A stretch of DNA of 64,000 bases from an uncultured archaeon (lineage in GTDB: Archaea > Nanobdellota > Nanobdellia > Pacearchaeales > GW2011-AR1). The DNA lies in the NCBI GenBank assembly GCA_902385635.1, contig CABMGN010000008.1, positions 130,894 to 194,893 on the forward strand, read 5' to 3'. Below are positions 1-50,264 of the stretch, one piece after another. The notes beneath the pieces were generated by a model, which ran no database searches, was not told where the DNA came from, and saw only the letters and a program-made list of their open reading frames with translations. How positions within the stretch are numbered: the first letter of the stretch is position 1; the number at the start of each line of letters is the position of its first letter. A program made the position numbers and the translations under genes.

Positions 1-592
1 CAGGTAAATAATAAGTAACTTGGCCGATTCCAAAAGCATTTTGTATATCATAATTTAGTGTAGCAGTCAAATTTCCACTGACAAAATCAGGCATTGAACT
101 CTCATTTTTATTTTGTTTTAGTACAACAACAACATATCCAATATTTTCTAAGATAGGAGAATTAAGAAGAGTCTCACTATTTGTTTTCAAAGCAGCTCTT
201 GCGGGGTGATAACCGATTCCCGCTACAGAATCAGGATACTTTCCAGAGAAAGTAATTGAACTAATTGCATTAACATCAATCAACGGATTTACTTTTGTCG
301 CAGAGATAGAACAAAAGACAGGATAATTTTGTTCTTCAAGTATATCACTTCTAACAACAGTTGGACTACACCCCAGCGGACTAACTTGTAAAATAAAATC
401 CTGACCTGTATTACAAACATTTGCATCAAAACCAGAAGATAAAGAGATTCCCTGATTAGCTAAATACCCTGCCGAAGTAGTTCGGGGAGAAGTGTACTGA
501 GATCCAGTAGAATAAAAATAAGATTGTACATTAAAGCTAAAGAATAAAATTCCAACTAGTAAAATTACAAAAATTAGCTTTTTACTTTTCAT
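1..592 (-). CDS. Secreted hypothetical protein, partial (C-terminus lies beyond the window edge)
   Basis: ATG at 592..590 is read open on the minus strand to position 1. The N-terminus MKSKKLIFVILLVGILFFSFNV looks like a Sec signal peptide. The start lies 1 nt after the stop of the upstream ORF 594..2489. It is absent from the ORF track because it is truncated. Confidence 0.45.
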   Translation of the reverse strand, partial: MKSKKLIFVILLVGILFFSFNVQSYFYSTGSQYTSPRTTSAGYLANQGISLSSGFDANVCNTGQDFILQVSPLGCSPTVVRSDILEEQNYPVFCSISATKVNPLIDVNAISSITFSGKYPDSVAGIGYHPARAALKTNSETLLNSPILENIGYVVVVLKQNKNESSMPDFVSGNLTATLNYDIQNAFGIGQVTYYLP

Positions 593-593
593 T

Positions 594-2489
594 TTATCCA
601 AAAGTTATATCTGCTCCACTATTTTCAAATAAATTATAATTTCTTTCTAAGTCCGCAATGCTGCCTGGAGCGGGGAGGCTGTGTACATTTATCTTTATCT
701 CCTTAGAATTTTTAAGTTGAGATTCCAAGATATAATAACTCTGCTTTCCGCCTCCAGCTAAAACACTTGTAACTGTCTGGTCTGGAATTTCTATATCAAA
801 ACATTTTTCTCGAGTAAATCCAAACATTCCAAGCACCCCTGCTTGCGGCACATCTGTACACTGATTTGTTTTTGTTCCGGGAATAGTAAATGAACCCTCC
901 TTGAAAATTTGAACCTGAACCTCATACTGACCTTCACTAAGTTGTATTTCTCTTTGCGAAGGGTAACTAATTGAATTTGAATTTTCTTCAGAAGCAAAGC
1001 TTACAAGAGCACTTCCAGAAAAAGAGCTTCCATCAACAGTAATAGAAACTGTTTGATTGTAAAGTTTATTCAAGAAAATATTCACGCTTCCAGAATCTAC
1101 TGTTGAAGCCATATATTTTGCATCAGAGAATCCAGGGGAATTAACTAAAATAAATCCATTTGCGCACTGAGGGAACTTTCCATTAAGAGCCCCACTAGAA
1201 GTTTGACCCATATCACATTTCTGGCCTAAGCAAGAGTAAGAAACAAAACCATCTACTGGATTGAATTCAGAATCGTAAACATGAACTTGCATCTCTGTAT
1301 TTTGATAAGCGCATAATTCTGGTGGTGCAACAGCAGAACCACTTACATCCTGGGCTTTTCGTGGTTTATTTCCTTCTAAAACAACTGCGAAAGGAAACTG
1401 GAAAACTTCCTCTCCTTCCATAACTTGAACCATCACAGGGTATCTAACATTATAGACGTAATGATACGGAACATAACAGAAACCAAGTATTCCTAATCCA
1501 GTTTGAGTCCCTATAGGTTTAGCTACAAGTAAACTTCCTTCCGAAGGATTCACTTCGAAAGAAGAAGGCCAAGATTTAGAATTTAAGAAACTCACAGACT
1601 GATCTACACTCAAATCAAGAACAAAATATTTTTCTTCCTTATTCTTAAGATCGTAATTATTTGATTTTAATTTTATAGCTGCAGTATTTGCTTCTATTGC
1701 ATCCTGTAGATGACTAAAAACCTCTTGAGCGTTCCAAATTTTTGGAGCACAAGAAATGTCAACACCATCTACTGGTGCGTAAAGTCTTAGAGTATCGACA
1801 GCGTAATTCTCTAGGAACATATTCTTTTGTTCATAATCATAAACTTTCTTAGCAGAATTGTATAATGCACCAAGATAAGATTTAACAGTCACCTCGTGTT
1901 TTCTTATAACAACACTTTTTTCTTTGTAAGTTATATTCATTGGCATAGTAACTACGATTCCAACAGCCGGGTCAGATATTTTCGTTGTAACATTAGGGGC
2001 GCCTAGAGAAAAAACAAAACCTTGCTCTCGGTAAGAATCAAGGTTACAACCCGGAACATTCTCTTCAATAAATTGGGAAAGTTGTCTTTGCATTTCTTCT
2101 TTAGTTGGTACTTGTTCTTTTTCTAAATTTGAAGCAGAACGATAATACCAATACGGAACAGGATTGCCAAAAAAGTCCATCTGAGAAGAGAACGGGTCGT
2201 ACCTAGATCCGGGTTCAAATTCTGGAGGGTAAATATAACCTCCCTGCGTTTCTAATACAGAAATCCCGTTTGAAGTTGTTTGTTTTATACAATCAAGCAG
2301 AGCATTGTGAAGGGGTTCAAACTCAGTAGGAATAATTTCTCCAGAAATAGGACCAGTAATTTTATCTTTGAAAATAAAAAATAATGATAGTGCGGCTATG
2401 ATTAAAATTCCAACTATAATAAAAATTGTAACCTGCCCACGATTCGATTTTCCATTAGAAACAACACACAAAAACACTCTTTTTATCAT
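594..2489 (-). CDS. Large extracellular protein with a class III (type IV pilin-like) signal peptide
   Basis: 631 aa. The N-terminus ...NGKSNRGQ|VTIFIIVGILIIAALSLFFIF is a basic leader, G-Q, then a ~20-residue hydrophobic helix. No other family motif was recognised. Confidence 0.5.
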   Translation of the reverse strand: MIKRVFLCVVSNGKSNRGQVTIFIIVGILIIAALSLFFIFKDKITGPISGEIIPTEFEPLHNALLDCIKQTTSNGISVLETQGGYIYPPEFEPGSRYDPFSSQMDFFGNPVPYWYYRSASNLEKEQVPTKEEMQRQLSQFIEENVPGCNLDSYREQGFVFSLGAPNVTTKISDPAVGIVVTMPMNITYKEKSVVIRKHEVTVKSYLGALYNSAKKVYDYEQKNMFLENYAVDTLRLYAPVDGVDISCAPKIWNAQEVFSHLQDAIEANTAAIKLKSNNYDLKNKEEKYFVLDLSVDQSVSFLNSKSWPSSFEVNPSEGSLLVAKPIGTQTGLGILGFCYVPYHYVYNVRYPVMVQVMEGEEVFQFPFAVVLEGNKPRKAQDVSGSAVAPPELCAYQNTEMQVHVYDSEFNPVDGFVSYSCLGQKCDMGQTSSGALNGKFPQCANGFILVNSPGFSDAKYMASTVDSGSVNIFLNKLYNQTVSITVDGSSFSGSALVSFASEENSNSISYPSQREIQLSEGQYEVQVQIFKEGSFTIPGTKTNQCTDVPQAGVLGMFGFTREKCFDIEIPDQTVTSVLAGGGKQSYYILESQLKNSKEIKINVHSLPAPGSIADLERNYNLFENSGADITFG

Positions 2490-2542: not shown

Positions 2543-2800
2543 TTAGTAAACTCTTGGCTTAATTCCAGCCATTAATCCTAGGACAATTAAAAGAACACCA
2601 ACAACCCCATTAAAGTAAGGTCCTAACGCTGTTGAGACACTTTCAGATATTTTAATCCACTGAAAAGAAAGGTTAAGAAAGTATAAACCGAAAATAACTC
2701 CTAAGATTAAAAGAATAGTTCTGCCACTTCCACTTCTTCTTGGAGGCATTCCACCATAACCCCCACCATACGCTGGCGGACCACGATTAAAGAAACTCAT
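2543..2800 (-). CDS. Small membrane protein (Gly-rich N-terminus, two TM helices)
   Basis: 85 aa with two clear hydrophobic helices and a basic C-terminus. No recognisable family. Confidence 0.4.
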   Translation of the reverse strand: MSFFNRGPPAYGGGYGGMPPRRSGSGRTILLILGVIFGLYFLNLSFQWIKISESVSTALGPYFNGVVGVLLIVLGLMAGIKPRVY

Positions 2801-2957: not shown

Positions 2958-3224
2958 ATGTTAAGAAAACAACACGAAGATAAGTTAGATAAAAAAATTC
3001 AAAACGATTTGGCTGCCGGAGTTGTTGGGGGAGTTGGGGGTGGTTTGATTCTATCATCAAAAGTACTAACTGGCGCAGCAACAGCAAACAGTATGAGGCC
3101 AACAGCATATTTGGGAATAATTTTGCTTGTCATCGGAGTTTTAGCAGGATTTCTGTACATAAAAAGAGAGAAGAAAAAACTAAAAGTTAAAGTCAAAAAA
3201 ACTTCTAAGAAAAAGAGGAAATAG
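2958..3224 (+). CDS. Small membrane protein with a C-terminal TM-hairpin module and Lys-rich tail
   Basis: 88 aa. TM1 (AAGVVGGVGGGLILS), loop SKVLTGAATANSMRPTA, TM2 (YLGIILLVIGVLAGFLYI), then KREKKKLKVKVKK. Preferred over the antisense ORF 2999..3196. Confidence 0.4.
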   Translation: MLRKQHEDKLDKKIQNDLAAGVVGGVGGGLILSSKVLTGAATANSMRPTAYLGIILLVIGVLAGFLYIKREKKKLKVKVKKTSKKKRK

Positions 3225-7486: not shown

Positions 7487-8539
7487 ATGAATATTCTATA
7501 CGGAGTAACTGGTGAAGGCTTCGGCCATAGTTCAAGATCTCAGGAAATAATTCTACATTTACAAAAAGAAGGGCATAGAGTTTTAATTTTAACATACGGA
7601 CAAGCATATCCGGTACTAAAAGATTTTTTTAACAAAAAAGAGTACAAGAATAAAGTTGAAATCTATAGGGTAGAAGGGTTTCATATCTCTTTTGAGAAAG
7701 GAAAAGTTTCTGTTTCAGAGACGATATTAAAGAATATAGAACCAGCAGTTAAAAACATAAAAAACTGGGACAAAATAATAAAGAAAGTAAAAAGTTTTTC
7801 TCCAAAAGTTGCAATTACTGATTTTGAGCCTCTAACAGCAAATATATCTTACTACTTAGGTTTACCCTTAATAAGTATAGATAATCAGCATAGAATAACC
7901 CATATGAAAATAAAGGTTCCTGCAAAGTACCAAACAGATTTTTTTATCGCAAAGGGGTACGTATCACTCTGCCCACCCATTGCAACTAATTATATCACCC
8001 TATCCTTCACAAAGAGTAAACTTCATTCAAAAAAAGATTTTATTGTCTCGCCTGTTCTCAGAAAAGAAATAATAAATCTTAAAAAAAGAGAGGGTACAAG
8101 GATTTTAGTCTATCAAACACAAAAAGATTTAGAATTCTTAAAGGTTCTAAAAGAAATAAAAGAAAAGTTTATTGTTTACGGGTATAATAAAAACTTAGTT
8201 GATGGGAACATTCATTATAAAAAAGCCGGGAGAGAATTTCTCAAGGACCTTTCAGAATGCAAAGGGATCATAGCCACAGCAGGCTTTACTCTAATATCAG
8301 AAGCCCTTTACCTAAAAAAACCGTATTTTGCTGTTCCGCTACGAGGCCAGTTCGAACAAGTTCTTAATGCACTCTACCTTAAACAGTCAGGAATGGGAGA
8401 TTTTTCTGAAGAACCCACAAAAGATCAACTAGAAAAGTTTGTGAGTGACCTTCCCAGGTATAGAAAAAAATTCAAAGATTACAAGACAAATCCTGAAGAA
8501 GCAAATGAGGTTTTAGACAAAATTCTCAGAAAGTTATAG
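7487..8539 (+). CDS. Glycosyltransferase (MJ1255-like, GT-B fold)
   Basis: 350 aa. The N-terminus ILYGVTGEGFGHSSRSQEI and the C-terminal GIIATAGFTLISEALYLKKP resemble the MJ1255/GT28-like family. Confidence 0.6.
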   Translation: MNILYGVTGEGFGHSSRSQEIILHLQKEGHRVLILTYGQAYPVLKDFFNKKEYKNKVEIYRVEGFHISFEKGKVSVSETILKNIEPAVKNIKNWDKIIKKVKSFSPKVAITDFEPLTANISYYLGLPLISIDNQHRITHMKIKVPAKYQTDFFIAKGYVSLCPPIATNYITLSFTKSKLHSKKDFIVSPVLRKEIINLKKREGTRILVYQTQKDLEFLKVLKEIKEKFIVYGYNKNLVDGNIHYKKAGREFLKDLSECKGIIATAGFTLISEALYLKKPYFAVPLRGQFEQVLNALYLKQSGMGDFSEEPTKDQLEKFVSDLPRYRKKFKDYKTNPEEANEVLDKILRKL

Positions 8540-8869
8540 ATTAAAATATCTATTTATCTCTGCAATAAAGGCCAATCTCTCTCGCTTAGCATTTGGTTTT
8601 AAATACTTTGTATGAAGCCGTTCTTTAACTAGCCTTGCAACCTGTTCTGGGCAAAGAGGATCTAGATTTTCTAAACCATTTAACTCTAAAACACATCCTT
8701 CATTACGCGGAGCACCTTTTTTTCTTGGGAGATCCGAGTAGTTAGAAAATTCAATCAAAAAGTTTTGAACATAGGTTATTCTTTCTCTTTCACTAACACA
8801 ACTTGAAACAAAAGCAGAAAATAGTTGGGCCTCAAATCTCCCGACCTTACCAAATCTAGTTTCACCCAT
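8534..8869 (-). CDS. Hypothetical protein
   Basis: 111-aa ORF in an otherwise uncovered gap, convergent with the glycosyltransferase (6-nt overlap). No motif recognised. Confidence 0.35.
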   Translation of the reverse strand: MGETRFGKVGRFEAQLFSAFVSSCVSERERITYVQNFLIEFSNYSDLPRKKGAPRNEGCVLELNGLENLDPLCPEQVARLVKERLHTKYLKPNAKRERLAFIAEINRYFNL

Positions 8870-8981
8870 TAAAAAATAAAAAGCAGAACTTTCTTTAAAA
8901 AAGTGCTCAACAAAAAATAGTGTATATTAAAAAGCAATAATTATTTAATCTCAGATTTGCCTCTAATTATATATTTTAATT

Positions 8982-9533
8982 TTAAAACTTCTTCTTAGCA
9001 AAAAGATATATCCCCATTAAACCCAAGAAAAAAAGAGCTAAACCTATTATTCCAAGTTGTGATGAAGAAACACTAGCAATAGAGTTTCCCGTAAGAGCAC
9101 CAGTAGAAACAACACTCGCACCAACCAAGCTCACTAGACCAATAAACCCTGCCAATTTTTCCTGGAGAGTTGTTCTTTTAGAATGTTTTTTCTTTTCCTG
9201 TTCAACTCTTCTAACCTCAACATGACAACCAATCTTAGTAAATAAGTGTAAAGCCCGGTCAAAGTCCTCTCCCCTCTCCGCAAGTTTAGCAGCCATATAA
9301 TCTCTACCTGACTTTTCAGCTAGTTTAGAAGCTTCAGAATAATATCCTCCCTCAACTAAGATATTTATTGCTTTGTCATGTAAACCAAGTTTGTTAAAAA
9401 TCCGGGAAGAATTTAAAAAATCTCCAGTCTCCAGATAAGAATCTGCTGCAAGATTCAAAAGCCCCTTTTTTTCTAGTTCAACAGGAGATCTCTTTTTTTC
9501 TTCTCTTTTCAAATGCTCAAGACCAACAATCAT
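8982..9533 (-). CDS. Membrane-anchored protein: helical-repeat N-domain plus C-terminal TM-hairpin module
   Basis: 183 aa. A soluble TPR-like N-terminal half is followed by TM1 (FIGLVSLVGASVVSTGA), loop LTGNSIASVSSSQ, TM2 (LGIIGLALFFLGLMGIYLF) and the tail AKKKF. Confidence 0.45.
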   Translation of the reverse strand: MIVGLEHLKREEKKRSPVELEKKGLLNLAADSYLETGDFLNSSRIFNKLGLHDKAINILVEGGYYSEASKLAEKSGRDYMAAKLAERGEDFDRALHLFTKIGCHVEVRRVEQEKKKHSKRTTLQEKLAGFIGLVSLVGASVVSTGALTGNSIASVSSSQLGIIGLALFFLGLMGIYLFAKKKF

Positions 9534-9575
9534 ATTTTATTAAGGACAAACTAGATTTTAAATCTTTTTAGAGGA

Positions 9576-10073
9576 TTATCTTTTTCTCCACATAAAAATA
9601 CCAAAACAACCAACTAAGAAAAAGAGCAAACCAAAAAATTGCATAGGCGAAGAACTAGAAACACCAATTGCTGCAGCAGTCATAGATTGATTATACAAAA
9701 AACTTCCAATTGCTCCTCCGAAACCTATAATAGTTAAGGCAATTAGAGGAGAGGATCTTCTAGAAGGCTTATGACCCCCTAAGGAAATACGGTAGTTCTG
9801 GGCCATTCGGACTAAGTCCCATTTTGCTCCAGACTCTCTTAGGGTATCTCCCAAGATTCCAAATTGGTAATCTATATGTGTTCGTAGTTGAGATCTAGCG
9901 TCCGGGTCTCCTTTAGATTCGTGCAATGCTGCGGAATAATGAGTGCCAGCATCAGCAATATACCCTGAAATAGATTTTTCATCCCTCCGCACAAGGGCGC
10001 TCAAAGCAGACCTTACTGCAGCATTTCCAGCTCTTTCTTCTCTAACTGCGGGGATACCATTACCTCTTCTCAT
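9576..10073 (-). CDS. Membrane-anchored protein with C-terminal TM-hairpin module
   Basis: 165 aa. A soluble N-domain is followed by TM1 (LIALTIIGFGGAIGSFLY), loop NQSMTAAAIGVSSSSPMQ, TM2 (FFGLLFFLVGCFGIFMW) and the tail RKR. Two 60-nt lines counted by hand gave 48% GC, clearly above the window norm. Confidence 0.45.
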   Translation of the reverse strand: MRRGNGIPAVREERAGNAAVRSALSALVRRDEKSISGYIADAGTHYSAALHESKGDPDARSQLRTHIDYQFGILGDTLRESGAKWDLVRMAQNYRISLGGHKPSRRSSPLIALTIIGFGGAIGSFLYNQSMTAAAIGVSSSSPMQFFGLLFFLVGCFGIFMWRKR

Positions 10074-10151
10074 AAGAAATGATAAGGTCTCTTATTTATT
10101 AACTTTTCTTAAAACCACAAATTTATTAACCCTCTTTAGGCTTGGATTTCT

Positions 10152-11525
10152 ATGTTTGAAAAACTAAGCCAGTCTCTCAAAAAAGCAACAGATAAGATCA
10201 CAAATGCAATTTTCCTAGATAAAGATCTAGTTGAAGGTATAGTAAAAGATCTTCAAAGATCGCTAATTGAAGCAGATGTAAACATACTATTAGTAAAAAA
10301 ACTAAGTGATAAAATACGTCAGGAAGCCCTAGATGAAAGAGTAAAAGGCATAGACAAGAAAGAACATCTAATAAAACTCCTACATGAAGAACTTGTAAAA
10401 ATTCTAGGTAAGTACAAACCCCTTGAGTTACAAACAGGTCAGAATAGAATAATGCTTCTTGGTTTATACGGAGCAGGAAAAACAACAACAATAGCCAAGT
10501 TAGGTAATTACTTTGCAAAGAGGGGAAAGAAAGTAGCACTAATCGGACTAGATGTCCACAGACCGGCAGCAAAAGAACAGTTAAAACAACTTGCAGAAAA
10601 AAACAAACTAAACTACTTTATTGACGAAAAAGAAACAAATGCACTAAAAACCTGGAAAAGTTTTGAGCCAAAACTTAAAGGTTACGATTTAATCCTAATT
10701 GATACTGCGGGAAGACACACCTTAGATGAAGAGTTAGTTAAGGAGATTAAAACACTTGGCAAAGAAATCAAACCAACAGAAACTATTCTAGTAATGCCGG
10801 CAGATATAGGACAAGCAGCAAAAAAACAAGCATCTGAATTTCAAGATGCACTAAAAATTTCAGGAGTCATTATCACAAGAATGGATTCAACAGCAAAGGG
10901 GGGTGGAGCTCTGACTGCTTGCGCAGAAACAAACGCAGGAGTTTATTTTATAACAACTGGAGAAAAAATAAATGATTTGGAAACATTCAATCCACAAACC
11001 TTCTTATCCCGCCTTCTTGGAATGGGAGATTTAGACGCACTTCTAGAGAAAATAAAGTTAGTAACCGATGAGGGCCAGCAGAAAAAAATGCAAGAGAAGT
11101 TACAGGGGGGAAAACTGACCCTTGAAGATGTTGTTGAACAAGTAAAATCAATGAATAAAATTGGTGGGTTCGGAAAGATAAAATCAATGATTCCGGGTTT
11201 AGGAAATGCAAAGATCTCTGATGAACTACTAGAAGGGCAGCAAGAAAAAATAGCAAAATGGGAGCACATAATCAAGTCAATGACTAAAGAAGAAAGAGAA
11301 AACCCCGACGTCTTTAACAAAACACCCTCAAGAATTTCTCGTGTTGCGGCAGGTGCAGGAGTAAATAATTCAGAAATTAAAGCTCTACTAAAGCAATACA
11401 AAATACTTAATGATATGATAAAAGAAAGTTCAGGATTAGAAATGGATGAATCAGGAACACTCTCACAAAAGCAGATGATGAAACTTGCGAAGAAATTTGG
11501 TAAAGTAAAAAAGATGAGGTTCTAG
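10152..11525 (+). CDS. srp54: Signal recognition particle protein SRP54
   Basis: 457 aa. N domain, then G domain (GLYGAGKTTTIAKLG, DTAGRH, TRMDSTAKGG), then a Met-rich M domain. Confidence 0.92.
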   Translation: MFEKLSQSLKKATDKITNAIFLDKDLVEGIVKDLQRSLIEADVNILLVKKLSDKIRQEALDERVKGIDKKEHLIKLLHEELVKILGKYKPLELQTGQNRIMLLGLYGAGKTTTIAKLGNYFAKRGKKVALIGLDVHRPAAKEQLKQLAEKNKLNYFIDEKETNALKTWKSFEPKLKGYDLILIDTAGRHTLDEELVKEIKTLGKEIKPTETILVMPADIGQAAKKQASEFQDALKISGVIITRMDSTAKGGGALTACAETNAGVYFITTGEKINDLETFNPQTFLSRLLGMGDLDALLEKIKLVTDEGQQKKMQEKLQGGKLTLEDVVEQVKSMNKIGGFGKIKSMIPGLGNAKISDELLEGQQEKIAKWEHIIKSMTKEERENPDVFNKTPSRISRVAAGAGVNNSEIKALLKQYKILNDMIKESSGLEMDESGTLSQKQMMKLAKKFGKVKKMRF

Positions 11526-22585: not shown

Positions 22586-25228
22586 TTATTTCCTTCTAAA
22601 CAGATTACTAAACCAGGTAGAAATACTCTGTACTAAAGATCTTTTCTGAACAGAAGATGTTTGTGGAGAGGCTTGTGAATTAATTCCTTCAGATCCAGAA
22701 GAACTTCTTCCCCCACTACTTGCAGCACCTTCTCCTTGTTGAGACTCCGGACCTTCTCTCCCTGTACCTTGTCGTTCTTGTTGTTGGGGCGCAGGTGATC
22801 CGCCTCCACCGCCACCAAGAGGATTAACACAAGCAGCATCAAGAAGATAAACATTAGCATAAACTTCGCCACCATGATATTCCACATTAGCAGAATAAGT
22901 ATTGCTATTCGTTTTATCCCAAATTACCTTTGTAGCTAGAGGGGTTTTCATATAAGTTTCCCATACTTTCGATCCAGAACTTGTTTCCTGGAAAGTAGAA
23001 GCAGTATTAACAGAGCTAACCGTAACCTCATGCGCTCCATTTATTCCACCAGTACCATCAATAGTCATATTAAAGATTTCACGATCAAGACTTCCGTATT
23101 TATCAGCTTCGCCAAACTTGAGTAAAGCCCCACCAGTAGAGGGATAAGGAGGTAAAGATAATTTGAGTCCATCTTTGGTATAAAAAGTATTGAAAGAACC
23201 ACCCGAATTGATTATAGCGGTAACCCATCTGTCTGTAGAATTGTAACCAATATACACAACAGTTAAAGTGATGCTCCCAACATTACAAGTTTGCCCCGCA
23301 TAAAGTCCCTCACAAAGTGTAACACTCTCTCCGCCAATTGGTGGAACAGTAACCAAACTAGCCTCATTTCTCCCAGCATCAATATTTGCGGTTATTCCTA
23401 CAAATCTTAAATAGTAAGATTCAGCATCTCTTCCATTATTCCAGGAGGCTACAAATCCTCGATCATAATTATCTCCAAACTTAAGACCATAATAAGTAAG
23501 AGTTTGTGTATCAGAGGTAGCCAGTCGTTCTGTAGATGATTTTCCAGAGCCCAAGATAGAACCCGAAGATGGATCTATATATAGAAAAGGAATTAGATAT
23601 TCATTATCGTCCTTAAGAATTGTGTTAATCGAAGCGTAATCACCAGTTGATTCTATCTTAGTCATTTCTCGGTCAGGGATTGTAACATCTGCCATAGATA
23701 ACTTAATTGATCCAAAACCCGGCATGATTAATTCTGATGCTGGAGCTAAAAATAATTTATCCGATGATTTCCACTCAAGAGTTATCCATCTAAGGTTTCC
23801 TGTTGCAACTAAAAAGCTAGAACTTAAATCGGAGATGATTTGGTCATTGAACTTAACATTACCGGCATAAGGATATAACTCAAAAACATCTCCAGTAAGA
23901 ACATCGCTTAAAACCAACTTGTCAGTTGCTGCACTAGTAACTAAATATTTTTTGCCCAAGATTTCTATATCAGTTCCAGGCATCTTAGCTAAAGAAGGAT
24001 AGTCAGTAAAACTTAAGGTATAATTAAGTATATTCTGATTTGCACTAATTTTGAATCCTAAAACTGGAACATTATTATTAAAGTCTGGGTCCCTAAAGTG
24101 AGAGAAAGGTGCAGTTCCCTGCTGAATACTCTGGAGGTAGAAAAAAGATTGGGAATCGCTATCTACATAATTTTGAGATGCTAAAATTCTAGGCATAGAA
24201 GAGTCATTAATAGGCTTCAACCACACACTCCTAAGATTTTCTCGAAGATTTAATTTTTTGTCTGGACTTTCAAACTTAAAAGAATCGTCACATTGATTAT
24301 TTGATTGAACTAAGGCACCATCTATACACGAAGCGTTATATTCTATATATCCGTAATACTCCCCCTGGCAAACAAATTCTCTAAGATGATCTCCTTCCGG
24401 AACAACAAGTCCAGAGTCATCATAACAAAAATCAGTATAATCATTTCTTGCAGAGTCCAAGACCCTTCCCTTTATGTAAGGTTTGTCTCCACCATCAGAA
24501 TCTGTACAATTAGAACCAATACAAAAGCCATTTTGACAACCAGAAGAACAGGAATGACAATATCCTCCTCCGCTAAATGCAGCACATCTTGAAGAAGGAG
24601 TTCCGGGATTCTCACATCGATAGTTAGTAGTATTACCACAAGCAGAACCATTTTGACAGAATATTAAAGTTTGTGGAGGACAACCGGCATCATCATAACA
24701 AGTGATTGTTTGATTTGGAGGCTGTTCTACGCAAGCGCCACTTCTACAAGTATGTTGACAAGTGTACTGTCTAGTGGCAGGTCTAGAACCGTTACAAAAA
24801 TTTTCAGTCAAAACATTTAGTGCGACTCCACACATATCAGAGTAACTTTTTCCCCCGTATACAACTGTACCAAAGGTAAAGGGTTTGTCTCCACCATCAG
24901 AATCTGTACAAGAAAAAACCCCCGGAGTAATGCTTGTTGAATTAGTTGAAGGTCTAACAATAGTTGTATTTGGTTTTGTTGTGGTAGAAACTGTGGGTTT
25001 TACAGTAACAGTAGTTGTAGTAGATGTAGGATAATAAGTAGATGTTGTTGAAGAGGCAGAAGTATTGCTCTTAAGAGTGGTGGAACCGGCCGTTACTGAA
25101 GATGCTGGACTAATACTTATTACGTGTCCAGTTAAACCAGAATAAAGATCCGAAAAAAGTCCTGCACTTACAAAAGATAAAACTAAGATAAATACTAAAG
25201 AACCACAAACAATCCCCTTATTCACCAT
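22586..25228 (-). CDS. Giant secreted surface (S-layer-like) protein with Thr/Ser-rich linker and Cys-rich C[TS]D[ST]DGG modules
   Basis: 880 aa. Signal anchor plus the SAGLFSDLYSGLTGH leader, a T/S-rich stretch, two CTDSDGGDKP modules, a large beta-rich region, and a G/S/Q-rich basic C-terminus. Confidence 0.6.
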   Translation of the reverse strand: MVNKGIVCGSLVFILVLSFVSAGLFSDLYSGLTGHVISISPASSVTAGSTTLKSNTSASSTTSTYYPTSTTTTVTVKPTVSTTTKPNTTIVRPSTNSTSITPGVFSCTDSDGGDKPFTFGTVVYGGKSYSDMCGVALNVLTENFCNGSRPATRQYTCQHTCRSGACVEQPPNQTITCYDDAGCPPQTLIFCQNGSACGNTTNYRCENPGTPSSRCAAFSGGGYCHSCSSGCQNGFCIGSNCTDSDGGDKPYIKGRVLDSARNDYTDFCYDDSGLVVPEGDHLREFVCQGEYYGYIEYNASCIDGALVQSNNQCDDSFKFESPDKKLNLRENLRSVWLKPINDSSMPRILASQNYVDSDSQSFFYLQSIQQGTAPFSHFRDPDFNNNVPVLGFKISANQNILNYTLSFTDYPSLAKMPGTDIEILGKKYLVTSAATDKLVLSDVLTGDVFELYPYAGNVKFNDQIISDLSSSFLVATGNLRWITLEWKSSDKLFLAPASELIMPGFGSIKLSMADVTIPDREMTKIESTGDYASINTILKDDNEYLIPFLYIDPSSGSILGSGKSSTERLATSDTQTLTYYGLKFGDNYDRGFVASWNNGRDAESYYLRFVGITANIDAGRNEASLVTVPPIGGESVTLCEGLYAGQTCNVGSITLTVVYIGYNSTDRWVTAIINSGGSFNTFYTKDGLKLSLPPYPSTGGALLKFGEADKYGSLDREIFNMTIDGTGGINGAHEVTVSSVNTASTFQETSSGSKVWETYMKTPLATKVIWDKTNSNTYSANVEYHGGEVYANVYLLDAACVNPLGGGGGGSPAPQQQERQGTGREGPESQQGEGAASSGGRSSSGSEGINSQASPQTSSVQKRSLVQSISTWFSNLFRRK
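24480..24509. repeat. 30-nt perfect direct repeat, copy 1 (partner at 24882..24911)
   Basis: GGTTTGTCTCCACCATCAGAATCTGTACAA is present identically at both positions. Each copy encodes (minus strand) the CTDSDGGDKP core of a duplicated Cys-rich module. Confidence 0.85.
24882..24911. repeat. 30-nt perfect direct repeat, copy 2 (partner at 24480..24509)
   Basis: Same 30-mer as copy 1. Confidence 0.85.
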
Positions 25229-40789: not shown

Positions 40790-41416
40790 ATGTTCAATCA
40801 AAAAGAAGTTGGAGTAGTAATATTAGTAACAATAATTCTAGCACTAATAATAAGCTCCGTACAAACTTGGGATAAATTTTTGTATCTCCTTCCAGTAGTA
40901 TTCTTAGTAATTGCAGTAAATGTTATCGCAAAAAAAGTTGCAAGTTTTTATTTAGACTCTGAAGTAGAAATAAAGCTGTGGGAAATTGAAAGATACGGAT
41001 TTAAATCGCACCATAGATTCAACAAAGCAATTCCGGCAGGAGTAATCATGCCAATACTTCTGAAGGTTCTTTCATTTGGATATCTAAATTGGTTAGCCGT
41101 CACTAGTTTTGATGTAAAACCAAAAACATACCGGGCTGCAAAGAGATTTGGTTTATACTCTTTTTCAGAGGTAAGTGAATTTCATATAGGAATAATCGCT
41201 GCCGCAGGAGTAGTTGCGAATTTATTTTTTGCTATTGTTGCTTACCTACTAAATATCCCAGATTTTGCTAGAATAAGCATATTCTACACATTCTTTAATA
41301 TGATTCCAATATCAGACCTAGACGGAAATAAAATCTTCTTTGGAAGTTTGATTTTATGGGCTTTCTTAGCTTCCCTAGTTGTAATTGGAATGTTCTTTGC
41401 TTTATTTGTGATTTAA
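40790..41416 (+). CDS. Site-2-protease (M50)-like membrane protein lacking the HExxH motif
   Basis: 208 aa. It retains the C-terminal FNMIPISDLDGNKIF (the NxxPxxxLDG motif). Where HExxH is expected, the first TM region reads VIAVNVIAKKVASFYLD. Confidence 0.4.
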   Translation: MFNQKEVGVVILVTIILALIISSVQTWDKFLYLLPVVFLVIAVNVIAKKVASFYLDSEVEIKLWEIERYGFKSHHRFNKAIPAGVIMPILLKVLSFGYLNWLAVTSFDVKPKTYRAAKRFGLYSFSEVSEFHIGIIAAAGVVANLFFAIVAYLLNIPDFARISIFYTFFNMIPISDLDGNKIFFGSLILWAFLASLVVIGMFFALFVI

Positions 41417-41417
41417 G

Positions 41418-41645
41418 ATGAAACAGAAAAATAAGAAAAAACAAGAATCTTTTTTCAAAAAAAAGAAAGTTATCTCAGTATTTGCAATTATCTCGCTAGT
41501 TGCAGGGGTTGGATTTCTGAATAAAACAATGACTGGAAATGCGGTTTTAAACCAATCAGCAAGTATACAGTTTACCCCTTTAATTGGTATAGCACTAATA
41601 ATCTGCTCCGGAATTCTAAGTGCATATATTATATTCAGGAGGTAA
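41418..41645 (+). CDS. Small membrane protein consisting of the TM-hairpin module
   Basis: 75 aa. A basic N-terminus, TM1 (VISVFAIISLVAGVGFL), loop NKTMTGNAVLNQSASIQ, TM2 (FTPLIGIALIICSGILSAYIIF), then RR. Confidence 0.45.
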   Translation: MKQKNKKKQESFFKKKKVISVFAIISLVAGVGFLNKTMTGNAVLNQSASIQFTPLIGIALIICSGILSAYIIFRR

Positions 41646-44781: not shown

Positions 44782-45459
44782 CTAATAGTTGACTCGCCCC
44801 AAATGAATAGTAGCGTTCTTTAGAGCAGGTAACTTATTTTTATATATTGAAAAAATAACGAAGTTTCTTCCAAGAGATGAGGTATAGACGGGGGGAGTTA
44901 TATCGCTCCGAAGAGTATAAGAAGGAATAGCTGAAGGATTATAAGTAGAAACAGGTAATTCTATAAAAACGATCTTAAACATTTCCTGGTTGATAAAAGA
45001 ATTCTTCAATCCAACTTTCTTTCCATTAATATTCATACTAACAAGGTTATTGGAGATAGCGTCCATAGAGAGATCTATACCCTCATAGGTTAATTTCTCA
45101 GACTCGTAAAGTTTACAAACATTTGCGATACATCTAGATACATTCAAATCTAAAACCTTAGCTACTTGCGTATTTATTTTAAGTGGAACATTCTGGGCCG
45201 GGGTTTTACAAGTGTTTAAGCAAAGATTATAGTTTTTAGAAGTACAGATTTTTTTAGAGAATCCCTCTAAAGAGGAAGGACAAGCGTTAAGTGTGCAGGT
45301 TTTAACACAATCCCCCAGTATATCTGCCTTATCAACAACGGCATTTCCACTAATCTTCCCCCAAGCACCAGTTAGCCACGAAGCAGAAACCATAGAAAAT
45401 GAAAGTAAAACTACTAAAATAAGAATAGAAGATAAAACCACCTTTTTCATACTAACCAA
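44782..45459 (-). CDS. Secreted Cys-rich protein
   Basis: 225 aa. A signal anchor followed by SWLTGAWGKISGNAVV (the same xTG/SGNAV motif as other surface proteins here), then 11 Cys in the next ~100 aa. Confidence 0.45.
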   Translation of the reverse strand: MVSMKKVVLSSILILVVLLSFSMVSASWLTGAWGKISGNAVVDKADILGDCVKTCTLNACPSSLEGFSKKICTSKNYNLCLNTCKTPAQNVPLKINTQVAKVLDLNVSRCIANVCKLYESEKLTYEGIDLSMDAISNNLVSMNINGKKVGLKNSFINQEMFKIVFIELPVSTYNPSAIPSYTLRSDITPPVYTSSLGRNFVIFSIYKNKLPALKNATIHLGRVNY

Positions 45460-46738: not shown

Positions 46739-49441
46739 TTATCTAGTTGGGAAAGCACTTCCACCAGAAGGCCTAGACTGCCAAGTTTGAGATGCTTTAG
46801 CGGCGTTCCTCTTTTTGACTATTCTTATTATAAGAATAGCTCCAACAATAATAAGAATGACCAATACTCCAATTAGAACCCAAATTAGAATAGCCCCAAG
46901 TTTAGAAGGTTCAGTAGTAGTAGTTGGCTCTGCAGGGGGTTCTTCATTAGTTGTAGTCATAATACAAAGGGTTTTATCATAAGTTTTACAGTTAGAAGAA
47001 CAACTTAACTCACCAGAATCAAAACCCTGAGTTTTACATGTTGCATCATTAAGAAGAGCGCCATCACAGACCTCGCCAGAGTCAATTTTTCCATTTCCAC
47101 AAGTATCAGTAGTAGACCCAACAATTAGAGACCAAGAACGACTTATCGAATTAAGTCCGTCAGAAACCCAGATTACAATGGTATACGCCCCAGAAGAAGA
47201 GGAGGAAAAATTAAAAGAAGAGCCATAACCAGTCTTTAGATTGGAAGAATTTCCAGACTTAGTAGCAGTCCAAGTTAGTTGCAAAGGATCCCCATCTAGA
47301 TCAGAAGCATTGATAGAGTAAAATTCTGGCTCATTCACATCTACATTGGTTATATTTTCTATAGGAGAGTAAGAGTTAATTGTGGGGTTATGATTACTAG
47401 CGCTTATAGTAAGATACAACACCCCTTGGAGGGGAGCATTAAAACCGTCACTTGCGTTTATGCTAAGATTCCTCTGCCCTATGAAATTTGAAGGAGAACC
47501 ACTTAAGTTAAGAGTATGGTTGTTTATTACCTGCAGAGTAATATTCTCTGCACCACTCCAATTGTAAAAAACATAACCCCCATCAGGATCATAAAAAAAG
47601 TTATTCAGATCTATAACCGTACTCTGGCCTAAAGCCCACTGAACAGTTGAATTTGCTTGGATTGGAGGAAAATTAAAGGGTTGGACCGTTACCTTAAGAG
47701 CTTTCATCTCAACAGAAGAACTTCCGTTAGAGGTTGCATTAAAAGTAATATTTGTAATACCATTCCAATAAGCAACTTTTGTAGTTAGATCTATAGAGGT
47801 TCTAGATAAAAAATTTACATTTAAATCAGGAGATACCGCAGAGTAAACGATACTACTTTTATCATTAATGAGCTTTCCACCGACTATAAGAGTAAAATAA
47901 TTATCAAAAGTAGGATAAACCGAAAAGGAAAGATTGCCATTTTCAACAAAAACCCTTTCACCAATCATACCGCCGTTATAAATGAGTGTAGCATTTGACT
48001 TAGCAATATAAAACGCTCTTTCGGTAGAATTTATTGTCGTTGAAGAAAGTTTACCAACACATTTCATTTGGTAAATTCCATCAGGGTAAATAACATTAGG
48101 GGTAACCTCTCCGCCTTGCCCATAAGTACCCCAAGAAGTATCCCCAAATCCAGATTTTTTACCAGAAGCAAAAGAATAAACTTTAACCGTAGAATTAGAA
48201 TAAGAGGGAGTACTATTTTTTGCAAGCATAACTAAAGCCCCATTAAGAGTAGTATAAACTTGCATTTCAACAAGGGGAGTTGAAGAATTTGTAGAACAAG
48301 CAAAGACTACATGTGAAGAGTTAAATACATAGTTTGAAGGTGGAAAAGAAACCCAAGCGCTATACCCACTATAACTTGGGGCAGAATTACACTTCCCATT
48401 AACACAACCATTTGAGCAAGGAGTGCTCTCGGGTAAAGCAACTCCCCCCGTAGGAGATTCACAACTATACTGCAAGACATTATTTCCGTTAGTAGAACAT
48501 TCGTCATAAACAACACAAGTCCCAGAAGGAGAATCGCAAGGAACCTGATAAGGCACAGAACCAAAACCCCACTTATAAGTGCTATAAGTTATATTCCCTT
48601 TTACAAGAGGGTCATCACTAGGATCAGTATCGCTGCAAAAACTAGTAGGTACAATAATAAAATCTCCTCCTTGTGCTACTTGAGCTTCCGCCCCACTTTT
48701 AGGAGTACAAGAACCCGCATGGGTTTGCGCTCCGGTAACACAAAGACCAGAACAATCATAAGTCTGATTTTTAACGACTGTTCCACTACAGTAATATTCT
48801 ATTAATTTATTCCCTGAAATGCAAGCATCTGTTTTAGAACCAGAAGAAACAGCATGGCCTGTAATTAAAGGAGTCTGTATCGTTCGTTGAACAACAACAC
48901 CTTGTTGAGTATTAATTTTGGTATTCAAATTAAGAGTATTCCCCTTAACATTTAAATTTGCTCCAACTTTTTTAGTAATTTGTTTAATTCCAAATAATCC
49001 CCCAATAAAATTTCTAATCTTATCTGCAGTAGTAAGGGGGACCGTTTCTTCTACATTTGGCCCGCCAACAACTAACTGATCTTTATCAACAACGAGAGTA
49101 TCGTCGACATTAGCGGTAAGCTGCCCAACTTCGCCAGGATTTAAGGTTTGGCCCCCAACATTAACGGTATTGGTTGCATCTTGTATATTTCCTACTTGAC
49201 CGACCGCAGTATTAACTGCAGGGCCAGAGCTATAACCAAATGTTGTTGTCCCGCCGTGAGTTGGATCATTTCCACCATCAGTTTCAGTACATGTGGCAGC
49301 GATCATTACTGCATTACCCGTAATACTATGCCCAGTCATTCCAGAATATAAATCAGAAAATATTCCCGCAGATAAGAGAGAAAAAGTTAAAACTAAAACC
49401 AAAGAAAATCCAATTAAAAGTGAAACCTCTTTTCTAACCAT
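46739..49441 (-). CDS. Giant surface protein with N-terminal leader, Cys-rich modules, Ig/cadherin-like repeats and a C-terminal TM anchor
   Basis: 900 aa from MVRKEVSLLIGF. It has the leader SAGIFSDLYSGMTGHSITGNAV, CTETDGGNDP and FCSDTDPSDDP modules, repeated beta-rich regions (DPDGG, SDLDGDPL), a T/P/E-rich stalk, the TM LGAILIWVLIGVLVILIIVGAILII, and a basic tail. The start is supported by TTTATAAA at 49464..49471. Confidence 0.6.
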   Translation of the reverse strand: MVRKEVSLLIGFSLVLVLTFSLLSAGIFSDLYSGMTGHSITGNAVMIAATCTETDGGNDPTHGGTTTFGYSSGPAVNTAVGQVGNIQDATNTVNVGGQTLNPGEVGQLTANVDDTLVVDKDQLVVGGPNVEETVPLTTADKIRNFIGGLFGIKQITKKVGANLNVKGNTLNLNTKINTQQGVVVQRTIQTPLITGHAVSSGSKTDACISGNKLIEYYCSGTVVKNQTYDCSGLCVTGAQTHAGSCTPKSGAEAQVAQGGDFIIVPTSFCSDTDPSDDPLVKGNITYSTYKWGFGSVPYQVPCDSPSGTCVVYDECSTNGNNVLQYSCESPTGGVALPESTPCSNGCVNGKCNSAPSYSGYSAWVSFPPSNYVFNSSHVVFACSTNSSTPLVEMQVYTTLNGALVMLAKNSTPSYSNSTVKVYSFASGKKSGFGDTSWGTYGQGGEVTPNVIYPDGIYQMKCVGKLSSTTINSTERAFYIAKSNATLIYNGGMIGERVFVENGNLSFSVYPTFDNYFTLIVGGKLINDKSSIVYSAVSPDLNVNFLSRTSIDLTTKVAYWNGITNITFNATSNGSSSVEMKALKVTVQPFNFPPIQANSTVQWALGQSTVIDLNNFFYDPDGGYVFYNWSGAENITLQVINNHTLNLSGSPSNFIGQRNLSINASDGFNAPLQGVLYLTISASNHNPTINSYSPIENITNVDVNEPEFYSINASDLDGDPLQLTWTATKSGNSSNLKTGYGSSFNFSSSSSGAYTIVIWVSDGLNSISRSWSLIVGSTTDTCGNGKIDSGEVCDGALLNDATCKTQGFDSGELSCSSNCKTYDKTLCIMTTTNEEPPAEPTTTTEPSKLGAILIWVLIGVLVILIIVGAILIIRIVKKRNAAKASQTWQSRPSGGSAFPTR

Positions 49442-49463
49442 TAGATAATAATAGCTAAAACCA

Positions 49464-49471
49464 TTTATAAA
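49464..49471 (-). promoter_or_regulatory. TATA-box-like element for the giant surface-protein gene
   Basis: TTTATAAA lies 23-30 nt upstream of the ATG at 49441, directly after the stop of the upstream methyltransferase gene. Confidence 0.5.
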
Positions 49472-49472
49472 T

Positions 49473-50264
49473 TTACTTATATTTGTTTTCAATTATAAGG
49501 TATCTCTCTCCACCAAGCTCAAAATCATCCACGAGATTAAAATTTTCATTAATGAAATCTAAAATCCATTTTCGGCTAACAAAAAACTTCTTTCTAGAAA
49601 CAAGACTTCGTGTTGCAAAACTTAAAACAAGACGAGTACAAAAAGGAACAATCTCTTTCAAAAGCTTCTTAGAATAATCTCTGTCGAGCATTTCTAGAGA
49701 GTCTATCACCTTAAAAAGAAAAATAATTCTTGGTTTCTTTTGTTTTTGAATCAGGTTGGAAAGCTCGGAAAGATCAAACAAACTCATCTTAATTGCAGAA
49801 GCTGAATTAATTTTCTTAATACTAAAATAAGAATTCATCAGAGCATCTAACTGCCCAACACCCTCAACTGCAAGGTACTTTATTTTCTTCTCTTTAGGGA
49901 AAAAGTTAAAAGATAGCCCATTAATTCCTGCACCCAAATCTATTATAGAAATCTCTTTTTCATTAATTCCTTGAAAAATTTTAGTGTAAACCTCTTCATA
50001 AAAGGGAAATCTTTCTTTTGTAGAAAGATGTTTCTTAAGAATCCATTCTTCATCTCTTTTATTTAAGTGATTTAAAGAGAAAGTTTTATTGCTAGCAAAA
50101 ACAGAAAAAGTTTTTCTAAGTAAATCCCGAGTTAATTTAATTTTTTCCTCGTCACTTGTTTGTCTCCTTTCAAACTTAGAAAAAGCTAGTTCTACATCCT
50201 TTTCAGGAAGTTGTGAAAATTCAGACTTTTGGGTAATTTTAGATATTATTTCAGATTTATCCAT
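49473..50264 (-). CDS. FmrO/Rmt-ArmA-like SAM-dependent 16S rRNA (m7G1405-type) methyltransferase homologue
   Basis: 263 aa. An N-terminal helical domain, then HLSTKERFPFYEEVYTKIF, IIDLGAGINGLSF (SAM motif I), LFKVIDSLEMLDRDYSKKLL and RLVLSFATRSLVSRKK. These are collinear with my recollection of the Rmt/ArmA family. Confidence 0.55.
   Translation of the reverse strand: MDKSEIISKITQKSEFSQLPEKDVELAFSKFERRQTSDEEKIKLTRDLLRKTFSVFASNKTFSLNHLNKRDEEWILKKHLSTKERFPFYEEVYTKIFQGINEKEISIIDLGAGINGLSFNFFPKEKKIKYLAVEGVGQLDALMNSYFSIKKINSASAIKMSLFDLSELSNLIQKQKKPRIIFLFKVIDSLEMLDRDYSKKLLKEIVPFCTRLVLSFATRSLVSRKKFFVSRKWILDFINENFNLVDDFELGGERYLIIENKYK

Follow-up and report, generated by a model that had tools for sequence, protein, structure and literature searches.

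Four predicted proteins in one stretch of archaeal DNA end in what looks like the same arrangement of two transmembrane (TM) helices, and the question raised by this locus is whether they share a domain and, if so, what that domain does. The stretch, hereafter the window, comprises 64,000 nucleotides (nt; C8:130894-194893) of a 594-kb archaeal genome (nine contigs, 35% G+C, 78.6% complete) whose relatives appear in public records under the names Pacearchaeota, Woesearchaeota or Nanoarchaeota. An earlier note on this DNA had described four open reading frames (ORFs), here called h183, h165, h75 and h88 (Table 1), and had proposed that their common ending is a portable membrane-insertion or sorting signal of the archaeosortase or rhombosortase kind. 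Calling ORFs genome-wide by a crude longest-ORF rule and TM segments by a Kyte-Doolittle hydrophobicity window, we found all four, with loops, second helices and basic tails exactly as quoted there; each has a C-terminal helix, a short polar loop, a second helix, an aromatic residue and a basic tail. Their N-terminal parts are, as had been claimed, unrelated or absent (h183 against h165, BLASTP E = 0.7; h75 and h88 have almost none). We conclude that the four ORFs end in one homologous domain, probably a lineage-specific and portable two-helix membrane anchor with an exposed recognition loop.

The short motif in the loop is more frequent beside membrane helices than composition predicts. The pattern [TS]GN[AVS][IV] was counted 10 times over the roughly 186,000 residues of the genome, where 1.8 occurrences are expected from composition, and for 8/10 the distance from where a hydrophobic segment ends is -4 to +12 residues (positional expectation 0.54; binomial p = 3e-9). 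Shuffling of 586 post-TM windows gave an expectation of 0.14 and a maximum of 2 in 1000 shuffles, none of which reached 8. Because the pattern had been defined after this genome was seen, the test was repeated on a replication set drawn from the surroundings of SRP54 in other species (80 loci, 1.18 Mb); in it 6/12 occurrences were juxtamembrane, where 0.46 would be expected (p = 2e-6). With four scrambled versions of the motif, only 0-1 juxtamembrane matches were counted in either the genome or the replication set. The caveat entered with the original observation, that the motif might be no commoner than composition dictates, is thus answered by an excess that is upheld and replicated.

Profile searches extend this result from the motif to the whole two-helix hairpin. 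Three further hairpins were found in relatives (L005, L046, L072), and a profile (A1) was built from these and the eight copies of the genome, 11 hairpins in all. Members score 45-75 bits with A1 and all other ORFs below 22 bits, while other genuine two-TM proteins of the genome stay below 8 bits. In leave-one-out searches every member was recovered at rank 1-3 (in one case 7) of about 7,000 ORFs, and the ORFs that outranked some omitted members (only L048 and L050) are themselves hairpins with TGNV(I/V). The four window ORFs all rank first (E = 2e-9 to 3e-5): h183 at E = 2.3e-9, h75 at E = 8e-8, h165 at E = 7e-6 and h88 at 23 bits. From these scores and ranks we conclude that the hairpin is a real sequence family.

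Within this family the core motif is (L/I/M)-T-G-N-(A/V)-(I/V), and h165 (MTAAAI) and h88 (LTGAAT) are degenerate members. The former belongs to a sub-family of its own, with homologues (P0032, P0077) that carry an equal MT(S/A)AA loop; the latter is an orphan, for which a word-based search returned nothing besides h88 itself, and the lack of a homologue makes it the gene of the four about which there is most doubt. The eight copies in the genome are divided equally between the window and the sequence outside it, and at 6-8 copies the genome stands near the top of the range.

The hairpin profile scan that the earlier note had proposed recovered a coherent family. Among 1.84 billion representative proteins, A1 matched 1,690 clusters at E <= 1e-3, of which 108 also pass E <= 1e-10. 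All of the best 150 of the 1,690, a set biased in favour of the profile, have a match that stops at most a few residues short of the C-terminus; the family statistics are drawn from related sequences. The consensus runs ..S-I-I-G-I-x-G-x-x-x-G-I-F-F-L-S-(P/S)-N-(L/I)-T-G-N-(A/V)-I-(A/G)-N-(L/M)-(T/S)-x-x-(T/S)-S-N through the first helix (TM1) and the loop and continues as I-I-G-A-x-L-F-x-x-G-L-V-G-x-F-F-W-F-K-K through the second helix (TM2) and the tail. Thr is conserved at 98%, Gly at 98% and Asn at 92% in the T-G-N tripeptide, and two glycines of TM2 at 99% and 97%. The window copies are divergent members of this family. Contigs that encode canonical members are archaeal, with genes for ribosomal protein L35Ae, the thermosome and diphthamide synthase.

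The family is restricted in lineage. In the window's own GTDB family, 155/301 genomes (113/191 genera) are positive, with 1-9 copies each, and in a sample of 401 genomes of the class, 42/44 positive genomes belong to that family; weaker TG(F/Y/A/S)(A/V)(I/V) variants occur sporadically in other families of the class. A scan of metagenome contigs gave only 7 loci with a single copy each, and viral contigs held no hairpin relatives. Tandem pairs like h183/h165 recur in relatives. No family in Pfam, NCBIfam or PADLOC covers the hairpin in scans of window proteins, canonical members and 143 relatives, so that the module did not prove, as the earlier note had thought conceivable, to be a sorting domain already described in Pfam or TIGRFAM. 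In the literature searched, the motif strings of the module turned up in no paper and 'TGNAV' only in unrelated ones, and the titles and abstracts on C-terminal TM segments in DPANN archaea are not about this module; it is undescribed in the curated libraries and the literature covered by these searches. Rfam gave no match on either strand of 8400-10300.

The hairpin is also portable. The N-terminal parts of 132 members fall into 84 clusters that are unrelated by BLAST, and the remaining 22 of 154 members are bare hairpins. The largest cluster (16 members) has an H-x-H-P...P-S-x-x-D signature and a weak Prok-JAB match; other recognisable matches are to TPR, SNAP-like, receiver and class II aminoacyl-tRNA synthetase domains and, weakly, to a phosphoribosyltransferase (PRTase), all of them cytoplasmic types. 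In h183 the N-terminal part is a TPR/SNAP-like cytoplasmic solenoid (residues about 17-101) with a long helix that continues into TM1. Its AF2 model (mean pLDDT 80.6) has a TPR-like solenoid at pLDDT 91-97 and a loop below 50, and the Foldseek matches are TPR and SNAP proteins; word-based searches for h183 returned close orthologues only. The proposal of a portable signal for membrane insertion therefore stands in these two respects, with at least 84 unrelated N-terminal parts and two predicted TM helices; its analogy with archaeosortase and rhombosortase tags finds no support in the tests set out below. As a separate observation, the N-terminal half of the h165 gene (9750-10073, minus strand) has 46% G+C, and the window and the hairpin half of the gene have 34%; the difference would be explained by an origin of the Arg/Ala-rich domain elsewhere or by an effect of amino-acid content on its composition.

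The anatomy of the module suggests how it would lie in the membrane. Exactly two hydrophobic segments, both C-terminal and none N-terminal, are present in 151/154 members. TM1 ends in ..FFLS(P/S)N, and TM2 has its invariant glycines seven residues apart, followed by an aromatic pair and a Lys/Arg tail; the whole hairpin takes up about 55-60 residues. Net charge averages +1.8 over the 15 residues that precede TM1, falls to +0.07 across the loop and rises to +3.1 in the tail. The loop, of 13-20 residues, consists of 19% Asn, 17.5% Ser and 13.7% Thr (50% N/S/T) and only 2.9% charged residues. Since the flanks are basic and the loop is uncharged, both ends should by the positive-inside rule be cytoplasmic, with only the loop outside; since the carriers have no N-terminal signal peptide, the cargo is expected to stay in the cytoplasm. 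L048 and L050 have the hairpin at the N-terminus and L092 has it in the interior of the protein, which argues for an anchor domain rather than a strict C-terminal tag.

We suggest that the module tethers unrelated cytoplasmic domains (TPR/SNAP-like in h183, JAB-like, PRTase-like and receiver domains in others) to the inner face of the membrane, so that the N-terminal domain and the tail would be kept in the cytoplasm and only the small loop would be exposed outside. Placed at the extreme end of the polypeptide, the module is probably inserted late or after translation. The genome has an Oxa1/DUF106-type insertase gene, and Get3 was not found in it, with PF02374 matching two ORFs at positions 3-36 (the P-loop) only; this fits late insertion by such an insertase or by SecYEG, a route that the short uncharged loop would aid.

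In these respects the module recalls tail-anchored proteins, which likewise have a cytoplasmic N-terminal domain, no signal peptide and a portable anchor at the extreme C-terminus that leaves the ribosome only at termination. Those proteins have a single helix, however, whereas the module has two helices and a conserved loop and is homologous throughout with invariant residues; of a Get3 system only the P-loop matches were found. By its sequence features it appears to act like a tail anchor without being a member of that class. It also resembles the ToxR-like two-TM one-component regulators in joining a cytoplasmic domain to a hairpin with conserved residues in the outside loop, but these have Cys/His/Met sensing loops and one type of DNA-binding domain, in contrast to the T-G-N, the N-glycosylation sequons and the many kinds of domain seen here.

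The loop itself appears to be a recognition site, being too conserved for a mere connector. In orthologues of h183 (83-87% identity) TGN is invariant and the rest of the loop varies. Orthologues of h75 in three relatives (L101, L102, L107) keep T-G-N but lack the N-x-S/T sequons; T-G-N is constant through the loops MTGNAV, ITGNII, VTGNTI and MTGNVV. Invariance in two orthologue sets while the surroundings change indicates that T-G-N is under selection of its own. In 76% of the main family the Thr of TGN also closes an N-x-T sequon, with one or two more sequons following, and 144/152 family loops have at least one N-x-S/T sequon (median 2). Sequon density is about 10 per 100 residues in loops against 0.5 in N-terminal parts (about 20 times), and loops carry 1.92 sequons against 1.08 in within-loop shuffles (1.8 times); in sequons 2 and 3, Asn and Ser/Thr co-vary (p = 0.007 and 0.003). 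A gene for AglB is present in the genome. Within the anchor reading, our leading guess from these patterns is that the loop may serve as an N-glycosylation acceptor or as a docking epitope for an envelope component.

Several observations weigh against this reading of the module and its loop. The Thr is 98% conserved with or without Asn at -2, and sequons thus leave the core unexplained; the two best-conserved Asn residues (that of TGN and that before TM2) are never in sequons; and loop sequons are absent from 4/8 copies of the genome as well as from the h75 orthologues. By the ruler of eukaryotic oligosaccharyltransferase, which may not hold for AglB, a loop of 13-20 residues would be too near the membrane for glycosylation. 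Much of the sequon excess follows the N/S/T-rich composition, the statistics overstate independence because the sequences are related, and the AF2 model leaves the loop without a confident structure. An accessory or conflict role would likewise be compatible with a distribution that is patchy (half of the genomes), with tandem arrays and with the toxin-antitoxin genes found next to a few members. Genome-wide sequon density is uninformative on glycosylation, since it follows composition (observed/expected 1.05 in both secreted and cytoplasmic proteins).

The same short motif stands beside the anchors of secreted proteins, and a recognition role of the loop may be common to both contexts. The three secreted proteins of 880, 917 and 225 residues for which the earlier note had reported a related motif after the signal anchor all have it, behind the signal peptide (Table 1). 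In the 880-residue protein it lies about 13 residues past the likely cleavage site, and in all three a canonical V-S-A site precedes it by 11-14 residues, which indicates that the motif is not their cleavage site. The 917-residue protein has a second, internal motif, ITGHAV, at residue 211, and Pfam gave only a weak Big_9 match for it and no domain in the other two. These three and a fourth protein (L010:15723-16688) have a common mature N-terminus after the V/I-S-A site, (G/S)(L/I/W)FSD(L/F)(Y/F)..(L/M/I)(T/S)G(H/N/K)(A/V/S)(I/V), that is, an aromatic amphipathic stretch and then the motif, which looks like a second recurring context of the short motif. A further occurrence, ..GLAILDFGITGNAVSG.., is internal (residue 2350) in a 3,246-residue signal-peptide protein (C8:121754-131494, minus strand, with its 5' end in window 1-601), far from predicted TM helices.

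Table 1. Hairpin genes, secreted proteins with the short motif and the gene preceding h75 (window positions, unless a contig is given)
Feature	Position	Strand	Length	Description
h183	8982-9533	-	183 aa	hairpin residues 125-183 (nt about 8985-9161); loop ALTGNSIASVSSSQ, then TM2, tail AKKKF; T-G-N codons nt 9084-9092
h165	9576-10073	-	165 aa	Arg/Ala-rich N-terminal part; degenerate hairpin residues 110-165 (nt about 9579-9746), ..FLYNQSMTAAAIGVSSSSPMQ..FMWRKR; in tandem with h183
h75	41418-41645	+	75 aa	little beyond the hairpin; basic N-terminus, TM1, loop NKTMTGNAVLNQSASIQ, TM2, RR; T-G-N codons nt 41532-41540
h88	2958-3224	+	88 aa	degenerate hairpin ..SSKVLTGAATANSMRPTA..FLYIKREKKK; long Lys-rich tail
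Further hairpin	C4:21501-22361			loop LTGNVI
Further hairpin	C6:34545-35018			loop NLTGDVI
Further hairpin	C8:105046-105870			loop LTGNAV
Further hairpin	C8:19863-21545			loop MNGFAV
Secreted Ser/Thr-rich protein	22586-25228	-	880 aa	signal peptide ending VSA, then GLFSDLYSGLTGHVIS; motif GLTGHVI
Secreted, C-terminally anchored protein	46739-49492	-	917 aa	motif GMTGHSITGNAV; ..LLSAGIFSDLYSGMTGHSITGNAVMIA.. after signal peptide
Secreted Cys-rich protein	44782-45459	-	225 aa	..SMVSASWLTGAWGKISGNAVVDK.. after signal peptide; motif ISGNAVV
M50-like polytopic membrane protein	40790-41416	+	208 aa	directly upstream of h75 (stop 41416, h75 start 41418)

Two models in which the hairpin is cleaved have to be weighed against a stable anchor. 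In the first, TM1 and the following S-P-N-(L/I)-T-G would form a Sec-type signal peptide that signal peptidase I cuts after the Gly, releasing a single-pass peptide of about 35 residues (N-terminus out, C-terminus in) that starts N-A-I, while the upstream domain would be left on TM1 or degraded. The parallel is M13 procoat and the hairpin substrates of YidC/Oxa1, which share with the module a helix, a short and nearly uncharged loop, a second helix, two cytoplasmic ends and a signal-peptidase-like site at the end of helix 1. Judged by rule, the bond between Gly and Asn does fit Sec-type signal peptidase I: a basic n-region (+1.8) and a hydrophobic core are followed by a helix breaker (Pro/Ser) at -5, by aliphatic L/I/M/V in 99% of cases at -3 and by Gly in 98% at -1. 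At C8:30068-30706 the genome has an ORF (..VESCSMYH..) that by eye resembles signal peptidase I, and the 22/154 members without an N-terminal domain, h75 among them, would amount to a signal peptide plus a small TM peptide. However, TM1 is long for a cleaved signal, at about 18-20 residues, and the invariant Thr at -2 and Asn at +1 are not a normal need of signal peptidase sites; in the three secreted proteins the V-S-A site lies ahead of the motif, as described above. There is also no obvious reason to join 84 different cytoplasmic domains to a signal peptide, and unlike procoat most members place large cytoplasmic domains before helix 1; the family is archaeal and unrelated to procoat in sequence. 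The gene that directly precedes h75, in four genomes, might have pointed to a processing enzyme, since it encodes an M50-like membrane protein, but its sub-threshold Peptidase_M50 match covers the LDG-motif region only; NxxPxxxLDG is kept and HExxH is missing, so that it may be a non-catalytic relative of site-2 proteases. It occurs in 37/41 relatives irrespective of a hairpin gene, and with pairing in only 4 genomes we rejected it as a conserved partner of the hairpin. On balance we consider such a precursor unlikely.

The second cleavage model is the one first proposed for these proteins, a C-terminal sorting signal in which a membrane peptidase or transpeptidase of some new kind cuts at T-G-N, sheds TM2 and joins the new end to a lipid or an envelope polymer. 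Sorting signals of sortases, archaeosortases and rhombosortases (LPXTG, PGF-CTERM, PEP-CTERM, GlyGly-CTERM) have the same tripartite layout of motif, TM helix and basic cluster, are lineage-restricted and have many unrelated carriers per genome; here, too, an invariant short motif stands 12-14 residues before a TM helix with a Lys/Arg tail. The signal-peptide protein of L094 lacks the first helix and ends in ..ITGAVIGN.., a spacer, a TM helix and KRKR, and the proteins at G000 C6:22073-24022, in L050 (558 residues) and in L031 (577 residues) resemble it. An Asn (or Asp) followed by a small and an aliphatic residue is like the site of asparaginyl endopeptidase-type ligases. Three members even reach 16.0-20.0 bits with TIGR01167, the LPXTG anchor model (cut-off 15.9), but only model positions 8-33 are aligned, over the TM helix and basic tail, and the LPXTG positions are unmatched. 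Apart from this, the only sorting model listed in NCBIfam scans of 15 members was GVDTG_CTERM, at 13.4 bits against a cut-off of 29, and the GlyGly-CTERM model had no match.

The module differs from these signals in having a TM helix before the motif and a spacer of 12-14 residues between (P/S)N(L/I)TGN and TM2, where LPXTG directly precedes the hydrophobic segment, and its carriers have cytoplasmic-type domains and no signal peptide. Some copies, N-terminal or internal, are not at the C-terminus at all. In this 78.6%-complete genome, neither archaeosortase/exosortase (PF09721) nor sortase (PF04203) had a match at E <= 1, with positive controls that did match (M. jannaschii for the former), and no gene for a C13 peptidase or transamidase was found; the genome has one ordinary rhomboid gene (C8:95939-96526), and rhomboids are near-universal. 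Nor did the proposed co-occurrence with a processing enzyme emerge from the neighbourhoods: among 73 neighbours of 27 hairpin genes in 20 genomes, mostly unrelated housekeeping genes, no partner enzyme recurs, and the only recurring families are NTP_transf_2 (3) and T2SSE (2). For want of a recognisable archaeosortase, sortase or C13 enzyme, a matching model, signal peptides and a partner, and with copies away from the C-terminus, the archaeosortase/rhombosortase analogy was not supported by the tests run, and a cleaved sorting signal strikes us as improbable. Similarly doubtful, in our estimate, is the wider idea that T-G-N beside membrane helices marks an undescribed processing or ligation system specific to this archaeosortase-less, Pacearchaeota-type DPANN lineage. 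A membrane enzyme of some unrecognised family would then cut at or beside the Asn wherever the motif stands, in hairpins, after signal anchors and before C-terminal anchors, and the outcome would be a single-pass peptide of about 35 residues or a new end joined to a lipid, a glycan or an S-layer component. Together the two cleavage models claim a minor, though appreciable, share of the probability, and on the evidence tested a cleaved archaeosortase-like tag is less likely than a stable two-helix anchor that holds cytoplasmic domains.

A third alternative makes the hairpin a membrane-perturbing effector of biological conflicts, of the SLATT or holin type, in which an N-terminal sensor or enzyme controls a two-TM hairpin that oligomerises by way of its Gly faces and permeabilises the membrane. 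SLATT (NF033632) is likewise a two-TM module on varied domains and has weak profile similarity over the helices, and the conserved Gly faces on both helices of our module would suit such a role, as would its variable N-terminal domains, its presence in only 51% of genomes with 1-9 copies and its tandem arrays. Some members (in L097, L129 and L131) neighbour toxin-antitoxin genes (ParE, PemK, HEPN/MNT, NYN), NTP_transf_2 accounts for 3/73 neighbours, and the FtsY-SRP54 interval in which h183 and h165 sit (window 8534-10151) is a variable spot that in relatives (L001-L080) holds tyrosine integrases, RelE/ParE-like pairs and major facilitator superfamily transporters. The SLATT_4 matches, however, reach 15-18 bits (17.9 and 14.9 for two window proteins) against a cut-off of 55 and are lacking for canonical members; SLATT has an extra helical region and no T-G-N loop. 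PADLOC lends the module no defence support, with no match for ten members, relatives are absent from viral contigs, and the neighbours are mostly housekeeping genes. A pore would also leave the invariant, sequon-rich external loop and the motif in secreted proteins unexplained, and we rate this alternative as very unlikely. Chance resemblance, finally, of generic hydrophobic tails with a Ser/Thr/Asn-rich linker, as AT-rich composition might produce, is refuted by the tests run: TM helices and polar loops are of low complexity, HMMER E-values are optimistic for TM-rich sequence and two of the four ORFs (MTAAAI, LTGAAT) lack the full motif, but against this stand the replicated excess over shuffled windows, the leave-one-out ranks, the gap between two-TM non-members (<8 bits) and members (45-73 bits) and the near-invariant columns across 1,690 clusters.

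The two-helix anchor, if it is one, matters beyond this window. The module, of 58 residues, accounts for >1% of the genome's genes and is found in at least 1,690 metagenome protein clusters, and its invariant tripeptide is open to mutation. Hundreds of 'hypothetical proteins' could be annotated as membrane-tethered cytoplasmic proteins, which would place JAB-like, PRTase-like and TPR domains at the membrane. DPANN archaea have tiny genomes and many unannotated membrane proteins, and their envelope organisation and host contact are little understood. Should the loop be modified or cleaved, an archaeosortase-less lineage would be shown to have a new archaeal signal for sorting or glycosylation; if the module is only an anchor, it would offer a clean case of a membrane-targeting domain that one lineage invented and shuffled.

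The surroundings of the hairpin genes yielded some further observations. Synteny with SRP54 was considered and rejected, as a gene of the h183 type adjoins SRP54 only in the window, L046 and L072, and the interval is filled by other genes in the remaining 77 loci. A glycosyltransferase gene (Glyco_trans_1_3, E = 2e-89; window 7487-8539, plus strand) adjoins the h183/h165 pair. At 2543-2800 (minus strand) the window encodes an 85-residue two-TM protein (..ILGVIFGLYFLNLSF..GVLLIVLGLMAG..) of a different small hairpin family, whose place next to the gene for ribosomal L44e is conserved in most of the 80 related loci; T-G-N is missing from it, and its hairpin-profile score is <8 bits. In L162:1856-7647 and L163:5719-11267 (genomes G504 and G509), genes that combine TPR with the hairpin alternate with those for a 760-residue T2SSE-type secretion ATPase and a polytopic membrane protein of 724-732 residues, and this sub-family may be tied to a type IV filament-like machine.

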